In this document: positions 11,217 through 62,782 of the stretch, one piece after another | Position numbering within the stretch: position 1 is the first letter of the stretch | Layout of the letters: every line of letters starts with the position of its first letter | From: a phage | DNA length: 64,000 nt | Sequence record: PX436236.1 | Reading direction: 5' to 3' (one strand) | Made by a program: the position numbers and the translations under genes | Notes under the pieces: model-generated | What the model was told of the DNA's origin: nothing | Database searches by the model: none | What the model saw: only the letters and a program-made list of their open reading frames with translations

Positions 11217-11697
11217 CAAAGAGATTTCCATTCCTAAATTGGGTCTTAAACACCAGAAATTGGTTAAAGATGAAAAGGACCCTTACAAGGCCCTCTATAT
11301 GACAATGGAATCCATTTGTAAAGGACTGTCTGCAGCAGAAACAGATTTTGCTGCTTTACACCTTTTAGAATTCAACGGACGATTAAAAGAAAAAGTAACT
11401 AAAGATGGATTCACATATAATTTAAATGACCTTTATATTTGCCAACGACTTGAATTCCAGTTCCAAGGTAAGACATTTAAATTTAAATCACACGAACCAT
11501 TTCAAACATTTGGTCCTGTTGATAGTGTACTACAATCTCTTTATCTTGGTGATGATGTACCAGATTTTCTGGATATGCCTGCCTTTGTTGCTACATGGGC
11601 CGACGATATAACTTCTACTGTAGCTATCCCTGGTCCTAATGGTCCTATCAAAGGATTGCTTAAAATCATGGATATCTTAAATGAAGAACGAATCTAA
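11170..11697 (+). CDS. 28: Baseplate hub distal protein gp28
   Basis: 175 aa from internal ATG (T4 gp28 is about 177 aa); overlaps the gp27 3-prime end. Confidence 0.65.
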
Positions 11698-25481: not shown

Positions 25482-25768
25482 TAGAACCTCATCTGAAAGC
25501 CGTGTGATTTAACATTACCGCCGTAGATGTCAGAGGTGTTGACTTCACGGGCGGCACTAGGGTCGATATTGATATCACGGTTGAGCTTAGTGATTGCTAA
25601 GGTATCACGACCATTAACAGTACGGAATTCTACAGGGCATACAACATCAGCATAGGCCTTAATAGATTCACGAGTAGGTTGTTTGTCGGCAGGAACGTCT
25701 TTACCTGCTTTAGAGAAAACAACTTCACAGAAATTTTTACGAGTATCGAAATAAGTGGTCATAAACAT
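25481..25768 (-). CDS. Hypothetical protein
   Basis: 95 aa from internal ATG preceded by the conserved leader GAGGAAAATATT; the track start at 25801 lies inside a hairpin. Confidence 0.5.
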   Translation of the reverse strand: MFMTTYFDTRKNFCEVVFSKAGKDVPADKQPTRESIKAYADVVCPVEFRTVNGRDTLAITKLNRDINIDPSAAREVNTSDIYGGNVKSHGFQMRF

Positions 25769-25783
25769 AATATTTTCCTCAAA

Positions 25784-25799
25784 GGAGGCCGAAGCCTCC
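25784..25799 (-). terminator. C(UUCG)G hairpin
   Basis: mRNA-sense GGAGGC-UUCG-GCCUCC followed by UUU and then the RBS of the next gene; likely partial terminator or stabiliser. Confidence 0.5.
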
Positions 25800-25809
25800 A
25801 TTTTTAAGA

Positions 25810-26175
25810 TTAGATATCGAATTCGTTCAGAACTACATCAAAGATTGCTTCCAGGTGTTCAGGTTTAGCTCGGTTGCTCAGGATGTGACGAATCCAGGTT
25901 TTAACCAGAAGCTTACGATTAACGCCGTTCCAGCAAGGATGAGTACCTAAATCACGTTGACGGAAATCATCATCTAAAGCTATTTTAAAAGAAGAACCTT
26001 CTTTAGTGATTGAAAGAGTGATACCATTTTCAAAGCGCATATAAACGTAGTTAGGAGACATGCACTGTTCGATTTCGCACACCGCGCCGTTGTTGTGTTT
26101 CCACAGGCAAATAACTTCAGAAGAACCAGCGATACCGTTAGAAACATATTTACGTTCGAAGTTGATGTAGTTCAT
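25810..26175 (-). CDS. Hypothetical protein
   Basis: 121 aa; RBS AAACAAACTGGAGAATAAA identical to that of the next upstream gene. Confidence 0.5.
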   Translation of the reverse strand: MNYINFERKYVSNGIAGSSEVICLWKHNNGAVCEIEQCMSPNYVYMRFENGITLSITKEGSSFKIALDDDFRQRDLGTHPCWNGVNRKLLVKTWIRHILSNRAKPEHLEAIFDVVLNEFDI

Positions 26176-26216
26176 TTTATTCTCCAGTTTGTTTTCGTAT
26201 TATTTGGTACAGGTCT

Positions 26217-26246
26217 ATAATAACACAACCTGTACCAAAGTAAAAC
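26217..26246 (-). promoter_or_regulatory. Early promoter cassette with inverted repeat (PeSL-like)
   Basis: Minus-strand GTTTTAC-N17-TATTAT; the -10 sits inside an 11-bp perfect inverted repeat (26204-26214 / 26228-26238). Confidence 0.55.
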
Positions 26247-26248
26247 AT

Positions 26249-26581
26249 TTATTTCACAACATTCCAATTTTTCATATCAAGTTTACCAACTTTTTTCATC
26301 TGAGCAATCAGACGTTCAGCACGTGTACGGGCATTAACATAATAGAATTCACCATTTTTGTTTTCTTCAATACGACCAGTAATTACAGTTTTCAGTTCAT
26401 AAATCCAACCTGTAAAGAAGTTGTGAAGCTCGATGGTGAATGTAAAATCAGTACCCATACCTTCAGTTGTTTCAACTTCGATGATATCACCTTCAACTGC
26501 AGTCAGGACCCACATGGTTTCTTGATATTCACCGTTGAAACATTTAGCTTTAACAGATGCATTCAGATTTACAGTTTTCAT
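26249..26581 (-). CDS. Hypothetical protein
   Basis: 110 aa; promoter-leader nearly identical to that at 26176-26246. Confidence 0.5.
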   Translation of the reverse strand: MKTVNLNASVKAKCFNGEYQETMWVLTAVEGDIIEVETTEGMGTDFTFTIELHNFFTGWIYELKTVITGRIEENKNGEFYYVNARTRAERLIAQMKKVGKLDMKNWNVVK

Positions 26582-26622
26582 TTTATTCTCCAGTTTGTTT
26601 TAGTATTATTTGGTACATGTCT

Positions 26623-26651
26623 ATAGTATCATGCCTACCGGAGATGTACAC
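26623..26651 (-). promoter_or_regulatory. Early promoter cassette (duplicate of the 26217-26246 cassette)
   Basis: Minus-strand GTGTAC-N17-TACTAT; the flanking about 45 nt is near-identical to 26176-26220. Confidence 0.5.
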
Positions 26652-26679
26652 CCTTTTTTAAAGATTTAGAAACAAAAAT

Positions 26680-26697
26680 GGGACTCCGAAGAGTCCC
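26680..26697 (-). terminator. Intrinsic terminator with UUCG loop
   Basis: mRNA-sense GGGACUC-UUCG-GAGUCCC followed by AUUUUUGUUUC. Confidence 0.7.
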
Positions 26698-26702
26698 ATA
26701 AC

Positions 26703-26864
26703 TTATGCCTGAGGCTTACCAAAGCAAGCAGCATCTGCACGCAATACTGCACGAGCACGAGCTTGAAGCTTATCAACTACCTGATTGATACGCTTGTTGG
26801 ACGCACGCTTGTAACCAGCGCGTTTAGAGGTACCGTCAACTACTTTAACTTCTTTCTTAGCCAT
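26703..26864 (-). CDS. Small basic protein (hypothetical)
   Basis: 53 aa ORF below the track cutoff (MAKKEVKVVDGTSKRAGYKRASNKRINQVVDKLQARARAVLRADAACFGKPQA), pI strongly basic; weak RBS; terminator immediately downstream. Confidence 0.4.
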   Translation of the reverse strand: MAKKEVKVVDGTSKRAGYKRASNKRINQVVDKLQARARAVLRADAACFGKPQA

Positions 26865-27126
26865 TTTAAATCTCTTAAATTAGGATGCAGGACTTATTGG
26901 CGTTGCCTGCGCAAGCCCTCAAGGGGAACATAGGTTTCGGATATTTAACGACAGGATAACCATAAACCTCGTCATCATACCAACCACGACTTAGACAGAT
27001 AACCTTTTTCTGACGCGTGATAGTACAAAATACATTCAAGAGGTACACCGTAAAACTGTTGGGGTCTTAAAACTATAATGATTCGCAAATCATTAATCAA
27101 ACAGTTCGACGGCTCCTCGATTTAAC

Positions 27127-27375
27127 TTACTTCAGGGTAATAATAAAATGACGTACTGCTTTACGAGCTGCTGAAGCCAAAGGCTTAGCAAATTTCAGTT
27201 CATCTTTAGCTTCCAGTTCAGCAGCCAGAGTAGCCTGAGCAGGATTCAGATGTTTGAAATAACGCAGGATTTCCAGTGCTTCGGCTTCAACATCAATAGA
27301 TGCGCCGTAGTTTTCGTGACCGTTGTTCCAAGCGTTGCGTTGCAGTTCAAGAGCGTGATTCAATTGTTTGTTCAT
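27127..27375 (-). CDS. rIII: rIII lysis inhibition accessory protein
   Basis: 82 aa (T4 rIII is 82 aa); position downstream of gene 31. Confidence 0.6.
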   Translation of the reverse strand: MNKQLNHALELQRNAWNNGHENYGASIDVEAEALEILRYFKHLNPAQATLAAELEAKDELKFAKPLASAARKAVRHFIITLK

Positions 27376-27513
27376 TTTAGTTTCTCAATTCGAGATAAAG
27401 ATTGGTGGACACGTTCTTCTGAATTTCACTTCCTTTCGGCAAGTCTCTCAGTTGTAGTCCACCGCTTAGGATTCTCCGGTTAACTAACTAGTCCGGCAGC
27501 CAATCCATATTAT

Positions 27514-27521
27514 TATTTATA
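27514..27521 (-). promoter_or_regulatory. Candidate late promoter TATAAATA upstream of rIII
   Basis: Minus-strand TATAAATA immediately after the gp31 stop, about 140 nt upstream of the rIII ATG; could be a chance match in AT-rich DNA. Confidence 0.35.
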
Positions 27522-27845
27522 TCACTTATAAAGGCAAGGAATAGCTTTATAGTGACAGGTAACGAATTTTTGTTTAATTTCTTTAGGTTGTTTAATACCC
27601 AATGCAACCAAAGGATGAGGCACGTTAGCAATCTTACCAACAGGAAGTGGAGTCAAATCACCTACTTCACAAAAATCTTCAGGGACATCAGGTCCTACAG
27701 AATAAATTTCACAAAGTTCAGGGATTTCACCTTGATGAAGTTTGCCAATAACGATACCAGATGCAGTAGTTTCTTCATCACCAGCTTGTTTTGGTTCGGA
27801 AACGAGAATAACATATTCTCCGACCGCTTTAATAGGAAGTTCCAT
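27522..27845 (-). CDS. 31: Co-chaperonin gp31 (GroES-like)
   Basis: 107 aa; near-identical to remembered T4 gp31 ([41 protein letters not shown]). Confidence 0.9.
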
Positions 27846-27903
27846 ATTTAATCCATATTGTTTTGTTGATAGATTAATAATAACACGCTATTCTTAAAGC
27901 ATA

Positions 27904-28203
27904 TTACAGGACAAGCAGAGTTTCAGTCTGAAGGCCGTTAATAGAAATCAGCTTATCGAAACGGAATGAGCGCCAATCATTAACCTTGGTATCAAATACT
28001 CTGATATAATTAACAGGTTCTTTATTGGCTTCTGGCCCAGGGGCCTGGACTTCTTTATACGGCAGCAGGTCTAAGTCGCGAGTACAAGTCATACGACGGG
28101 CACTACCATCAGCTTTTTCAAACAGGACTTCGTGAAAACCAACAGACAAAATAGTCTTGACTTTTTCACGGAGACGAATAGTTTCTTGTTCGGTTAAAAT
28201 CAT
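27904..28203 (-). CDS. Hypothetical protein (31.1 region)
   Basis: 99 aa ORF, T4 31.x position. Confidence 0.5.
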   Translation of the reverse strand: MILTEQETIRLREKVKTILSVGFHEVLFEKADGSARRMTCTRDLDLLPYKEVQAPGPEANKEPVNYIRVFDTKVNDWRSFRFDKLISINGLQTETLLVL

Positions 28204-28205
28204 AA

Positions 28206-28439
28206 TTATTCCAGAATAGTTTTGATAGTGGTTGCATTACGCTCTTTTAGAGCTCTTAATAGGCTATGGCAATTATCAAGAATAGGCACCGTTTTATATT
28301 TCATTTCAGCGCGAACCCACTCGGATTTATAGTACGATTTCCAACGAGAGAAAAAGTACTTTTTATATTCTACTGAATAGGCTATCAGGTTTTCACCTTT
28401 TGAGTTCAGACCTGAAAATTTAACTAAACGAAATTTCAT
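28206..28439 (-). CDS. Hypothetical protein (31.2 region)
   Basis: 77 aa ORF. Confidence 0.5.
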   Translation of the reverse strand: MKFRLVKFSGLNSKGENLIAYSVEYKKYFFSRWKSYYKSEWVRAEMKYKTVPILDNCHSLLRALKERNATTIKTILE

Positions 28440-28462
28440 TTTGTTTCCTTCAATTAGGATGC

Positions 28463-28768
28463 TTAGCCTTCGATTTTTATATAATCAATGCGGACAATAT
28501 ACTTGGTTTCGCCGCCACGAGTTTCTTTACGAACTTCACGGACTAATACCAATTCTGGGTTTACATTTACCAATTGGTCAATAACATATTCGATATCACT
28601 AGTAGAATGAGTCGAAATTTCGCCAGTAGAATTGCCTTTAAGCTGTTCAATAACATAAAGTGGACCTACTTTAATAGATTTGATACCTTTTTGGAGAAGA
28701 GCATCAATAAATGTATCTGTGTAATCAACAGTAACCACTTGTTTAGGTTTTTCAAATAAAATATTCAT
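28463..28768 (-). CDS. Hypothetical protein
   Basis: 101 aa ORF; TAATG overlap with cd. Confidence 0.5.
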   Translation of the reverse strand: MNILFEKPKQVVTVDYTDTFIDALLQKGIKSIKVGPLYVIEQLKGNSTGEISTHSTSDIEYVIDQLVNVNPELVLVREVRKETRGGETKYIVRIDYIKIEG

Positions 28769-38611: not shown

Positions 38612-40294
<1,683 letters not shown>

Positions 40295-40319
40295 TTTATT
40301 CTCCTTAGTTGATAAGGCT

Positions 40320-40349
40320 ATAGTATCACTACCATAGCCTGGTGTAAAC
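40320..40349 (-). promoter_or_regulatory. Early promoter cassette with inverted repeat (PeSL-like)
   Basis: Minus-strand GTTTAC-N18-TACTAT; 7-bp inverted repeat AGGCTAT/ATAGCCT (40315-40340) around the -10. Confidence 0.55.
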
Positions 40350-43609: not shown

Positions 43610-44557
43610 TTAATAAAAATCAGCTACTGTAGCAGTTAGTTTAGACAAACCAGATTTAACGAAATAAGGATAAACTTTAGATTTCGAAGGTTTGTTATAC
43701 GTATTATATCTTTCAGTAATTAAAGCAACAATATCATCTGGAATAAAGTCCATATCAATTAAGATTTGGTTTTCACAGAAACGTTCATATTGTTCTTCAG
43801 TAAGAAGTGTTTTAATTATATCATGGTCGTAATAATTCAGAGCAATTGCTTCAAGTTCCTTGGCACGAGTGCTAGGAGTACGTTCGCCTTCAACCATCGT
43901 CAACCAGTAATCACCACGAACTTTAATACTCGCGACGTTATCCTTGCGGTCGCCTTTAACAACCTTAGTTACACAATCTAATAATGAATCGCCAGATTTT
44001 GTTTTGACGAATTTTTTCTGCATTGGAGACCATTGTTTTACCCCAGGGAATTTATGGAGTTGAGTAAAGTCGCCATCCGAAGAACCAATCATAACTGGAT
44101 GGCCTAAAGCCGTGAGGATTCGGGTTAAAACAGCAATATGGTCATCAGCTTCGATTGTATCGATATTCATAACAATATAAGGCATGTTTTGTTCCAGTTC
44201 ATCAACAATAATATGCATTGCTGTGAATAAACCTTCCCAATCAAATGGTGATTCGTCACGTGCCTTAGCACGGTTTTTCTTATAATAAGGTGAATAGCGA
44301 CGACGCCAATAACCTGATTTAGAGTTATCAACACAAATAACCAGTTGGTTGTACCCCTGTTTTTTAAAGTCTTTAATATTTTTCTTAATTGAATTCAACA
44401 CGAGGTGTCGAAGCATTGCTGTAGTTACTTTAGGAAATCCAGCATTCTCACCAAACTCTTGGAAAGCTGCAGCCATAATGATTTGGCTGAAATCTAGGAG
44501 TAAAAATCCATCTTTTTGTTGGTCTTCTTCAGGAAGTAAAAAATCTAAATCGTTCAT
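43610..44557 (-). CDS. rnh: RNase H (5-prime to 3-prime exonuclease)
   Basis: 316 aa from internal ATG with RBS GAGG; conserved blocks (IDFSQI, GYWRR, ADDHIAVL, SSDGDFTQLHK, RTPS). Confidence 0.9.
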   Translation of the reverse strand: MNDLDFLLPEEDQQKDGFLLLDFSQIIMAAAFQEFGENAGFPKVTTAMLRHLVLNSIKKNIKDFKKQGYNQLVICVDNSKSGYWRRRYSPYYKKNRAKARDESPFDWEGLFTAMHIIVDELEQNMPYIVMNIDTIEADDHIAVLTRILTALGHPVMIGSSDGDFTQLHKFPGVKQWSPMQKKFVKTKSGDSLLDCVTKVVKGDRKDNVASIKVRGDYWLTMVEGERTPSTRAKELEAIALNYYDHDIIKTLLTEEQYERFCENQILIDMDFIPDDIVALITERYNTYNKPSKSKVYPYFVKSGLSKLTATVADFY

Positions 44558-58066: not shown

Positions 58067-58101
58067 TTTGTATCTCCGATAACCATTTATTTGATAGGTC
58101 T

Positions 58102-58130
58102 ATAGTATCATGTTTAAAGCAGATGTAAAC
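58102..58130 (-). promoter_or_regulatory. Early promoter cassette for motA
   Basis: Minus-strand GTTTAC-N17-TACTAT. Confidence 0.55.
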
Positions 58131-58154
58131 TCTTTTTGCACTAAACCTAAAAAA

Positions 58155-58170
58155 GGAACCCGAAGGTTCC
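58155..58170 (-). terminator. Intrinsic terminator with UUCG loop
   Basis: mRNA-sense GGAACC-UUCG-GGUUCC followed by UUUUUU. Confidence 0.7.
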
Positions 58171-58275
58171 TTACTTTTTAAAGTTGGCTGCTATTAAACC
58201 TATAGCTAAGCCTGTCGCCAGGCCTAGGATAACAGCAAAGATACAGAGTAACAAGAACTCGACTCCAAGGCTCAT
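58171..58275 (-). CDS. Small hydrophobic peptide downstream of gene 52
   Basis: 34 aa single-TM-like ORF (MSLGVEFLLLCIFAVILGLATGLAIGLIAANFKK); ATGA overlap with the gp52 stop. Confidence 0.4.
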   Translation of the reverse strand: MSLGVEFLLLCIFAVILGLATGLAIGLIAANFKK

Positions 58276-60485: not shown

Positions 60486-60514
60486 ATTATAACATGATTC
60501 TCGAGGTTGTAAAC
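60486..60514 (-). promoter_or_regulatory. Early promoter for ndd
   Basis: Minus-strand GTTTAC-N17-TATAAT (perfect -10). Confidence 0.6.
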
Positions 60515-61228: not shown

Positions 61229-61257
61229 ATAATACCATGATTAATGGAGATGTATAC
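61229..61257 (-). promoter_or_regulatory. Early promoter cassette
   Basis: Minus-strand GTATAC-N17-TATTAT in the conserved GTTGATAGGTCTAT motif. Confidence 0.5.
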
Positions 61258-62531: not shown

Positions 62532-62781
62532 AATCACCACCAATATACAATTCTTCGACGTGAACATTACCAAAATAGATACGAGAGTTTTCACTCAATT
62601 TACTGTGGTCTAATTTTTTAAGGTTTTCAATTGAATCAAAAATCACGTCTGCGGCGAAAAGATGGCCCGTGGCTTTATCGGATTTGATTACATCTACACA
62701 ATAAACCTTATCTACCACATGGTTACCTTGGAGATATGAATTTTTGATATCTTCGTCGCCAACATTCATATAATTAATCAT
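62464..62781 (-). CDS. Hypothetical protein
   Basis: 105 aa from ATG with RBS GGTGAG; overlaps the proposed denB start by about 68 nt. Confidence 0.45.
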   Translation of the reverse strand: MINYMNVGDEDIKNSYLQGNHVVDKVYCVDVIKSDKATGHLFAADVIFDSIENLKKLDHSKLSENSRIYFGNVHVEELYIGGDYESVKSGTSSTVEDADIYPEDI

Positions 62782-62782
62782 T

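Follow-up and report, generated by a model that had tools for sequence, protein, structure and literature searches.

A conserved, structured spacer with a predicted H-type pseudoknot between rIII and 30.9 of T-even phages

We analysed the 262-nt gap (26865–27126) between the genes rIII and 30.9 in a 64,000-nt stretch of phage DNA (record PX436236.1; hereafter, the window), and found that this gap is non-coding and under purifying selection. It is very probably a selectively maintained, structured non-coding RNA that contains a true pseudoknot. The window comes from a T-even phage of the genus Dhakavirus, ~100% identical to QL01 and IME281, and the locus is read on the minus strand, the strand of all its features described below, in the order gp31, rIII, gap, 30.9 and terminator. 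A first-pass annotation, made from the sequence of the window, had suggested a structured 3′ untranslated region or a regulatory leader among several possibilities, and this suggestion is borne out: the segment is non-coding, is more conserved than the synonymous sites of rIII, and contains helices that covary on the gene-sense strand. We favour the reading, with a probability of roughly 55%, that the gap is a functional structured RNA spacer within the rIII–30.9 transcription unit, which would act in cis on processing, stability or translation.

A pseudoknot shared by rIII–30.9 spacers

The spacers between rIII and 30.9 that we compared came from GenBank phages, from 29 IMG/VR loci retrieved by way of rIII, from 18 loci retrieved with a conserved 20-mer, and from 18 metagenome loci to which gp30.9 led; the metagenome loci all belong to the same families and added little diversity. 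We identified an H-type pseudoknot at 26929–26975 of the window, in which stem S1 is formed by 26975–26967 and 26955–26948 (AUGAC(G)AGG with CCU-GUCGU) and stem S2 by 26964–26958 and 26936–26929 (UAUGGUU with AACC(U)AUG), with the 5′ arm of S2 inside the loop of S1 and with UAAAUAUCCGA as loop 3. In a plain MAFFT alignment of 24 distinct sequences, 76.5% of the cells are paired, compared with 30–49% when the partners are slid by 1–3 columns, and the covariation score is 0.264 compared with 0.06–0.14, a value that none of 500 shuffles reached. A structure-aware alignment gave 87.2% paired cells (31–43% in the slid controls) and a covariation of 0.43 (at most 0.083 in the controls); this alignment was fitted to the structure, and the MAFFT figures are the unbiased ones. 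Eight of the 15 pairs in the structure-aware alignment changed on both sides (4/8 in S1 and 4/7 in S2), with the series A-U/U-A/G-C and C-G/G-C/U-A in S1, and G-C/A-U and U-A/A-U/G-C in S2. Phage PM2, which lies outside the alignment, combines a window-type S1 with a different yet complementary S2.

The two helices thus cross and each carries compensatory substitutions, the criterion by which an H-type pseudoknot is recognized. By geometric rules, the loops sterically fit coaxial helices, loop 1 spanning the 7-bp S2 with 2 nt, loop 2 being 2 nt long, and loop 3 spanning the 8-bp S1 with 11–12 nt. The folding energy of the whole gap is unremarkable (z = −0.43), and no exceptional energy was found in the variable arm, the B region or the nested fold of the pseudoknot (modules described below), so the case for structure is a comparative one, the hairpin D1 excepted; it is conservation and covariation, not single-sequence evidence, that speak for the reality of the folded feature. 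A hammerhead-like reading of UGAUGA...GAAAC in the pseudoknot was rejected, the spacing of the core being wrong and no Rfam ribozyme matching.

The covariance model R2, built for the pseudoknot, matches the window exactly once (74.6 bits) and has one match in each of 20 out of 20 held-out loci with the long form of 30.9 and in the T4 reference, all at E ≤ 5e-9, and it matched none of six more distant T4-like loci in which rIII directly precedes another gene with no spacer. Every rIII–30.9 spacer examined, from six or more genera and T4 included, contains one pseudoknot, always upstream of 30.9, and loci that lack 30.9 lack the pseudoknot as well. Named records that contain it belong to the genera Dhakavirus, Tequatrovirus, Gelderlandvirus (STML-198) and Mosugukvirus (PM2), and it is also present in further lineages of Klebsiella, Enterobacter and Serratia phages. 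A degenerate pattern of the pseudoknot, run on 185,579 bacterial and archaeal genomes, gave 14 matches, which is close to chance (a rough estimate is ~17), all with at most 17 bits and lacking S1, compared with 75 bits for the true element. A weak match of the model at 43672–43701 lies inside a 326-aa open reading frame (ORF) and was dismissed as chance.

The scan against Rfam for which the first-pass annotation had asked returned no Rfam 15 family: cmscan at E up to 10 on 25500–28500 and 26840–27530 gave only chance matches of 11–20 bits, to families with gathering scores of 44–382, and none of these fell on the pseudoknot. The spacers of relatives, including a 140-nt domain described below, had no credible Rfam 15 match, and literature searches found no description of the rIII–30.9 spacer.

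The gap sequence is matched in 776 phage records, of which 449 cover at least 80% of it, and an 851-nt stretch is 99.9–100% identical in the Dhakavirus phages FB, IME281, QL01 and Bp7 (megablast). Its T4 counterpart is NC_000866 130541–130784, with the pseudoknot at 130608–130655. Between the window and T4, third codon positions of rIII differ by 33% (12/34 four-fold sites) and first and second positions by 7%, whereas the divergence is 2% in D1 and 6% in the part comprising the pseudoknot and the B region, which argues for strong constraint on the gap. The spacer therefore evolves several times slower than the synonymous sites of the neighbouring gene, yet is unannotated in the intensively annotated T4 group.

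Coding potential and exchangeable modules

The ORF-free gap reported between rIII and a 53-aa basic ORF is real, since rIII ends at 27127 and the downstream ORF starts at 26864. A rough gene map of the whole window (87 ATG-started ORFs) shows no ORF-free gap of greater length: this one measures 262 nt, compared with a median of 25 nt over ~86 intergenic gaps. The same rough map places the next largest ORF-free gaps (182–215 nt) at 62568–62782, 11217–11425, 58067–58271 and 40168–40349, at least two of which contain early promoters. Two other descriptions of the gap stood in part. That no ORF exceeds about 19 codons is true of ATG starts (19 and 18 codons) but not of GTG or TTG starts, with which the transcribed strand has ORFs of 57 codons (26875–27048) and 41 codons (26975–27100). 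The gap (40.1% GC) is GC-richer than other intergenic gaps (30–38%) but not when set against the window mean (39.5%) and the flanking genes (43–47%).

It is extremely unlikely that the gap encodes a small unannotated protein, be it the 57-aa GTG-started ORF or the ATG-started ORFs of 18–19 codons, or that it is a recently decayed gene. Although the 57-codon ORF and a 63-codon stop-free frame are present in the window, and hypothetical proteins are predicted at this place by some pipelines (in T2, for example), the longest stop-free frame switches from phage to phage in the collected spacers, even between close relatives: T4 differs from the window by three 1-nt indels (−1, +1, +1) within the 57-codon ORF. 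The GTG- and TTG-started ORFs are not conserved in relatives, and the small ATG-started ORFs have no Shine-Dalgarno sequence ahead of them and are gone in T2 and distant relatives. Moreover, the variation lacks codon periodicity (column entropies of 0.76, 0.68 and 0.74 bits at positions 1, 2 and 3 in the pseudoknot region), translations of the gap ORFs have no match in Pfam or PHROG, and no examined relative has an intact longer gene between rIII and 30.9. The relatives had been searched, as set beforehand, for an intact ORF of which the gap would be a frame-shifted derivative, and none was found, an outcome that counts against a gene remnant. Together with the 1-nt indels and the lack of any other copy in the window, these results speak against the earlier suggestion that the gap is the decayed remnant of a lost gene or mobile element.

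Several deposited genomes annotate the gap as a "hypothetical protein", and some as a "1,4-alpha-glucan (glycogen) branching enzyme, GH-13-type" (for example, OL964735 T4 and EC128). Such protein annotations on the gap are evidently pipeline errors and, on the practical side, gene callers have put spurious products on the non-coding rIII–30.9 spacer in many deposited genomes.

The spacer is best pictured as a set of modules that would fold independently, namely D1, a variable arm (H1), the H-type pseudoknot, B1 and B2. D1 (27040–27118) is a long irregular hairpin of ~25 bp, closed by GAGG/CCUC and containing CCGU/ACGG, AACUGUU/AACAGUU and an inner hairpin, UAAUGAUU-UGCG-AAUCAUUA. It is the sole module with an exceptional folding energy (−22.5 kcal/mol, z = −4.13; none of 200 shuffles folds as well). 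For 12 close relatives, RNAalifold predicted 25 pairs, five of them with compensatory changes, and the few variable sites of these variants are located in paired positions; changes on both sides turn CCGU/ACGG into CCAU/AUGG and AACUGUU/AACAGUU into AAUUGUC/GACAAUU. D1 also contains several invariant G·U pairs, which would be C·A mismatches on the opposite strand, and we therefore read the helices as RNA of the gene-sense strand. Phage STML-198 lacks the inner part of D1.

H1 (26979–27031) is a stem-closed 53-nt cassette with the inner hairpin CAGA...UCUG. Its locus has three allelic states between the identical flanks CTCTTGAATGT and ATGATGACG: nothing in T4, the 53-nt cassette in the window, T2 and PST, and a 140-nt multi-helix RNA in JS98 and others. 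The folding energy of H1 is not exceptional (z = −0.84), and one compensatory change, CAGA/TCTG to CAGC/GCTG, was found in the relative L012.

The multi-helix RNA domain of ~140 nt (ACGGCAAGUGCAUGC...AGCUAACGGUGUGCAACAGAUAAGAG) is absent from the window, where it would replace 27031–26979; it takes the place of the variable arm in relatives such as L010 (JS98; 1749–2101), L022 (1860–2000) and L005. RNAalifold gave it 44 pairs, 17 of them with compensatory changes, in addition to a covarying closing stem, with no variation in the unpaired stretches. The domain was found in 403 phage records (hosts include Klebsiella, Escherichia, Enterobacter and Serratia), mostly at 90–100% identity and usually unannotated, and it lies between rIII and 30.9 wherever the context was checked, before or after the pseudoknot depending on the lineage. 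A small module, GGUGAUU(C/U)GCUACC(U/A)(U/A)AGUGCxGCUAGAAA, is likewise absent from the window; it follows the rIII stop in L002–L005, L011 and L018, and follows the pseudoknot in L021, L022, L027 and L049.

B1 (26912–26929) is a motif of the form GU(U/A)CCC-loop-GGGCUUG (GUUCCCC-UUGA-GGGCUUG in the window) that could form a GC hairpin of 3–4 bp. It was found in nearly all relatives, PM2 being without it, and its position relative to the other modules varies in some; covariation lends the hairpin weak support, in the form of one U-A variant. B2 (26887–26910), the hairpin GCAGG-(CAACGCCAAUAAGU)-CCUGC, lies directly 5′ of the 30.9 ribosome-binding site. In relatives, the closing stem at this position takes at least seven different forms (GCAGG/CCUGC, GAACUGG/CCAGUUC, GGGAGC/GCUCCC, GGUGGAG/CUCCAC, GGGAAC/GUUCCC, GAGAGGU/ACCUCUC and GAGAG/CUCUC), and in many relatives a larger element is closed by a similar stem. 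B1 and B2 are the two short stems that the first-pass annotation had noticed; both are real, but GCAGG...CCTGC lies at 26910–26887 instead of 26904–26927, and the position of the CCCTTGAGGG stem is corrected to ~26925–26916. They are the least informative parts of the gap, the pseudoknot and the long 5′ hairpin having been missed.

The conserved B2 loop (GCCAAUAAGU) can alternatively pair with the Shine-Dalgarno/AUG region (−11.3 kcal/mol, compared with −8.8 kcal/mol for B2, in the window), and a long-range anti-Shine-Dalgarno pairing of CUCUUGA with UUAAGAG, both sides of which are invariant, is also possible. An alternative pairing about as stable as B2 would suit a ligand-sensing riboswitch in which the pseudoknot, or the 140-nt domain in relatives, is the aptamer that controls 30.9, as would the H-type topology with an A-rich third loop, known from preQ1-I, SAM-II and guanidine-III, and the conservation of unpaired nucleotides. 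We nevertheless regard a riboswitch as very unlikely, given that the alternative pairing is not conserved and is lost in variants with GUCA, that no Rfam aptamer matched even at E = 10 in a 691-nt search, that the distance between aptamer and platform ranges from 65 to 300 nt with other domains between, and that the controlled gene would encode a tiny basic protein with no metabolic link.

Among T-even phages, the modules are gained, lost and reordered, whereas the pseudoknot and the hairpin abutting the 30.9 ribosome-binding site are kept in every examined relative. The pseudoknot follows the rIII stop after 0 nt in L049 and L068, 34 nt in L022 and 151 nt in the window. Searches with blastn-short and two covariance models found no second copy of any module in the 64 kb. 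This swapping shows that RNA structural domains, and not only genes or promoter cassettes, are units of exchange in T4-type genomes.

Transcription context and possible functions

The flanking genes carry the names rIII and 30.9 in the annotation of phage IME08. The upstream cistron, rIII (coding sequence 27127–27375), is an 82-aa ORF 100% identical to the annotated rIII of IME08, IME281 and Bp7, and gp31 lies at 27522–27845. The downstream cistron, the 53-aa basic ORF at 26703–26864, encodes a homolog of gp30.9 (phrog_1427, E = 4e-27, function unknown) for which we found no relative in Pfam, NCBIfam or PDB, and which AlphaFold2, run on the single sequence, predicted as a single long basic helix (pLDDT 77). 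Its Shine-Dalgarno sequence (AAGAG, 26876–26872) and start codon (26864–26862) were read from the sequence. An intrinsic terminator at 26678–26699, located by a terminator scan, closes the rIII–30.9 unit; the strong terminator said to follow the gap is thus present (26699–26678) but sits after 30.9, not directly after the gap.

No terminator-like site was found by the scan between rIII and 30.9, and no canonical early promoter in the gap. The latter makes the gap probably an intercistronic leader acting in cis, and in the simplest reading it is the intercistronic part of read-through transcripts that end at 26699–26678. Two promoter-like sites were weighed and rejected. A consensus scan found the sigma-70-like TTGATT-17-TATAGT inside D1 (27072–27100), which is probably not a working phage promoter: its −35 hexamer reads CTGATT in most relatives, and STML-198 is without the surrounding inner part of D1. 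The second, the weak GTGTAC-17-TACTAT (27048–27020), is not conserved either. With an early-promoter matrix trained on 12 canonical early promoters of the window, which ranked 63,932 positions, both scored poorly (−2.5, rank 539, for GTGTAC-17-TACTAT and −11.1, rank 4184, for TTGATT-17-TATAGT), compared with 30.2 (rank 14) for the promoter that follows 30.9. Readings of GGGCTTGCG and GTTAAATAT as a MotA box or a late promoter were likewise discarded, there being no properly spaced −10 and no match to TATAAATA.

The early promoters of this genome are very uniform (GTTTACA-N-TGATACTATAGAC). Members of the family GTTTACA-N-TGATACTATAGACCTAT lie on the minus strand at 60514, 58130, 55752, 44617, 41349, 40638, 40349, 33410, 32119, 30157, 15826 and 4035, and the matrix scan points to further early promoters, outside the training set, at 61257, 26245 and 61959.

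Directly after 30.9 lies a PeSL-like cassette, consisting of the hairpin 26699–26678, a U-run, an A-tract, and then TGTACA (26650–26645) and TACTAT (26628–26623). T4-type phages are known to shuffle such intergenic promoter/stem-loop cassettes (PMC2839356, PMC4122927), and the spacer is mosaic between relatives and contains sigma-70-like hexamers; the gap might accordingly be viewed as a regulatory or recombination cassette acting at the DNA level, either a PeSL-type stem-loop with an early promoter or a scar, with no RNA function. We consider this unlikely, however, because the promoter-like sites of the gap rank as low as stated, D1 has no U-tract, each module occurs only once in the 64 kb, the compensatory changes include G·U pairs that are possible only in sense-strand RNA, and a pseudoknot makes no sense as a DNA signal.

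The cis action of the spacer, its role in processing, stability or translation, and any binding partner are inferred. Under the favoured reading of a cis-acting RNA spacer, stable modules would define boundaries of processing or decay on a polycistronic mRNA, blocking 3′ exonucleases behind the rIII message and shielding the 5′ end of the 30.9 message, and B2 or the other modules may set the accessibility of the 30.9 ribosome-binding site. Of all the modules, the pseudoknot, which no spacer lacks, is the one most likely to serve in recognition or blocking; its counterpart could be a nuclease, the ribosome (protein S1) or a phage-encoded protein, for instance the basic gp30.9. It is conceivable that gp30.9 binds its own leader and is autoregulatory. 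If the spacer does control the processing or translation of rIII–30.9, it would represent a new post-transcriptional element in the T4 lysis-inhibition region.

Several observations weigh against this reading. In the distant phage L031, 30.9 follows rIII directly with no spacer, and the spacer RNA is therefore not needed for the expression of 30.9 as such. The low divergence might partly reflect recent exchange and not selection, considering that D1 is 17% diverged in L009, where rIII is 1% diverged. The pseudoknot lies from ~65 nt (window) to ~300 nt (L022 type) from the 30.9 start and from 0 to ~280 nt from the rIII stop, so simple occlusion of the ribosome-binding site cannot be general, which leaves room for a stand-alone RNA. 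Finally, that the modules reorder freely would be explained by autonomous RNA domains no less well than by a cis regulator.

It is accordingly possible, though doubtful, that the spacer is a stand-alone, trans-acting non-coding RNA, processed out of the transcript or made from a weak internal promoter, and serving as a protein scaffold, as a decoy for a host nuclease or defence factor, or as a base-pairing small RNA; a small RNA had also been among the first-pass suggestions. Such an RNA would be consistent with modules that are autonomous, stem-closed, swappable and reorderable, with the very high conservation across genera, unpaired stretches included, with the wide variation in distance to both flanking genes, and with the weak promoter-like sites within the gap; yet the segment is bounded by no canonical promoter and no terminator, keeps one orientation and one pair of flanking genes throughout, and is missing from loci that lack 30.9. 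Acting in trans, the spacer would be a new phage non-coding RNA. We offer only tentatively, as a rather doubtful proposal, the further idea that in T-even phages it is a genuine gene for a non-coding RNA, in which the pseudoknot core would bind a host or phage factor (S1, an RNase or a defence protein) and the arms, the 140-nt domain among them, would be exchangeable. Were this true, the best-studied phage family would contain, in the 140-nt domain, a large structured RNA of a new class, resembling a ribozyme, an aptamer or a decoy.

The leader between gp31 and rIII is also structured. The late-promoter consensus TATAAATA is present at 27521–27514, upstream of rIII and directly after the gp31 stop, and is followed by a hairpin, GGAUU...CCGG...CCGG...AAUCC (27506–27469), in the place of which relatives have other hairpins. 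A further element at 27404–27463 has the form GGUGGAC-UACAAC-[two stacked helices, GAAA loop]-AAGAACGU-GUCCACC, and all three of its helices covary; model R1 detects it once in the window (90 bits), and no Rfam family matches it. In L022, L026 and L042, this type of element stands upstream of 30.9 and not of rIII, which suggests module exchange between the neighbouring leaders of rIII and 30.9, and the B2 hairpin of the window looks like a minimal version of it. The rIII Shine-Dalgarno sequence lies inside a small hairpin, UCUC-GAAUU-GAGA (27383–27395), which reads CCUC...GAGG in other lineages, a compensatory change; this suggests, from sequence, that translation initiation of rIII may be regulated.

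Comparison with known systems

The spacer is a conserved structured RNA element of phage mRNA and a member of no named family. PeSLs, which combine a terminator stem-loop with a near-consensus early promoter (TTTACW-N17-TAYWAT) and occur in many dispersed copies (Arbiol 2010, PMC2839356; Comeau 2014, PMC4122927), are similar to the spacer modules in that they are short, intergenic, and subject to gain, loss and exchange among close T4-type phages in a plastic region. The modules described here, unlike PeSLs, have no canonical promoter or U-tract, are present once each, count a pseudoknot among them, and show covariation at the RNA level.

The spacer pseudoknot resembles the aptamers of the H-type pseudoknot riboswitches preQ1-I, SAM-II and guanidine-III in its pair of crossing helices, its short loop 1, its A-rich loop 3, which could line the helix 1 groove, and its size (~45–50 nt). 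It differs from them in that none of their covariance models matches it, no expression platform adjoins it at a set distance, and its gene context is not metabolic. Similarly, the pseudoknot in the Escherichia coli rpsO leader is bound by S15, and ribosomal-protein leader operators of this kind resemble the present case in that the gene product is a very small and very basic protein and its mRNA leader contains a pseudoknot, although gp30.9 has no detectable relation to any RNA-binding family.

The RNase III hairpins of T7 early mRNA and REP-type stabilisers are intercistronic elements of processing and stability. The spacer shares with them the placing of a long irregular hairpin between the cistrons of a polycistronic message, and D1, at ~25 bp, resembles such sites in size. 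By analogy, intercistronic hairpins such as D1 plausibly set decay boundaries; the conserved core here, however, is a pseudoknot and not a long duplex.

The pseudoknot in the leader of T4 gene 32 mRNA, finally, is the operator for gp32 autoregulation and is conserved among T-even phages. The two leaders differ in locus and sequence; that of gene 32 has an unstructured A/U-rich tract up to the ribosome-binding site, whereas here B1 and B2 (in relatives, up to 300 nt of structured modules) intervene, and the distance from the pseudoknot to the start codon is not fixed. What they have in common is an untranslated stretch of T-even mRNA with an H-type pseudoknot, conserved in T-even phages, ahead of a gene of small or medium size.

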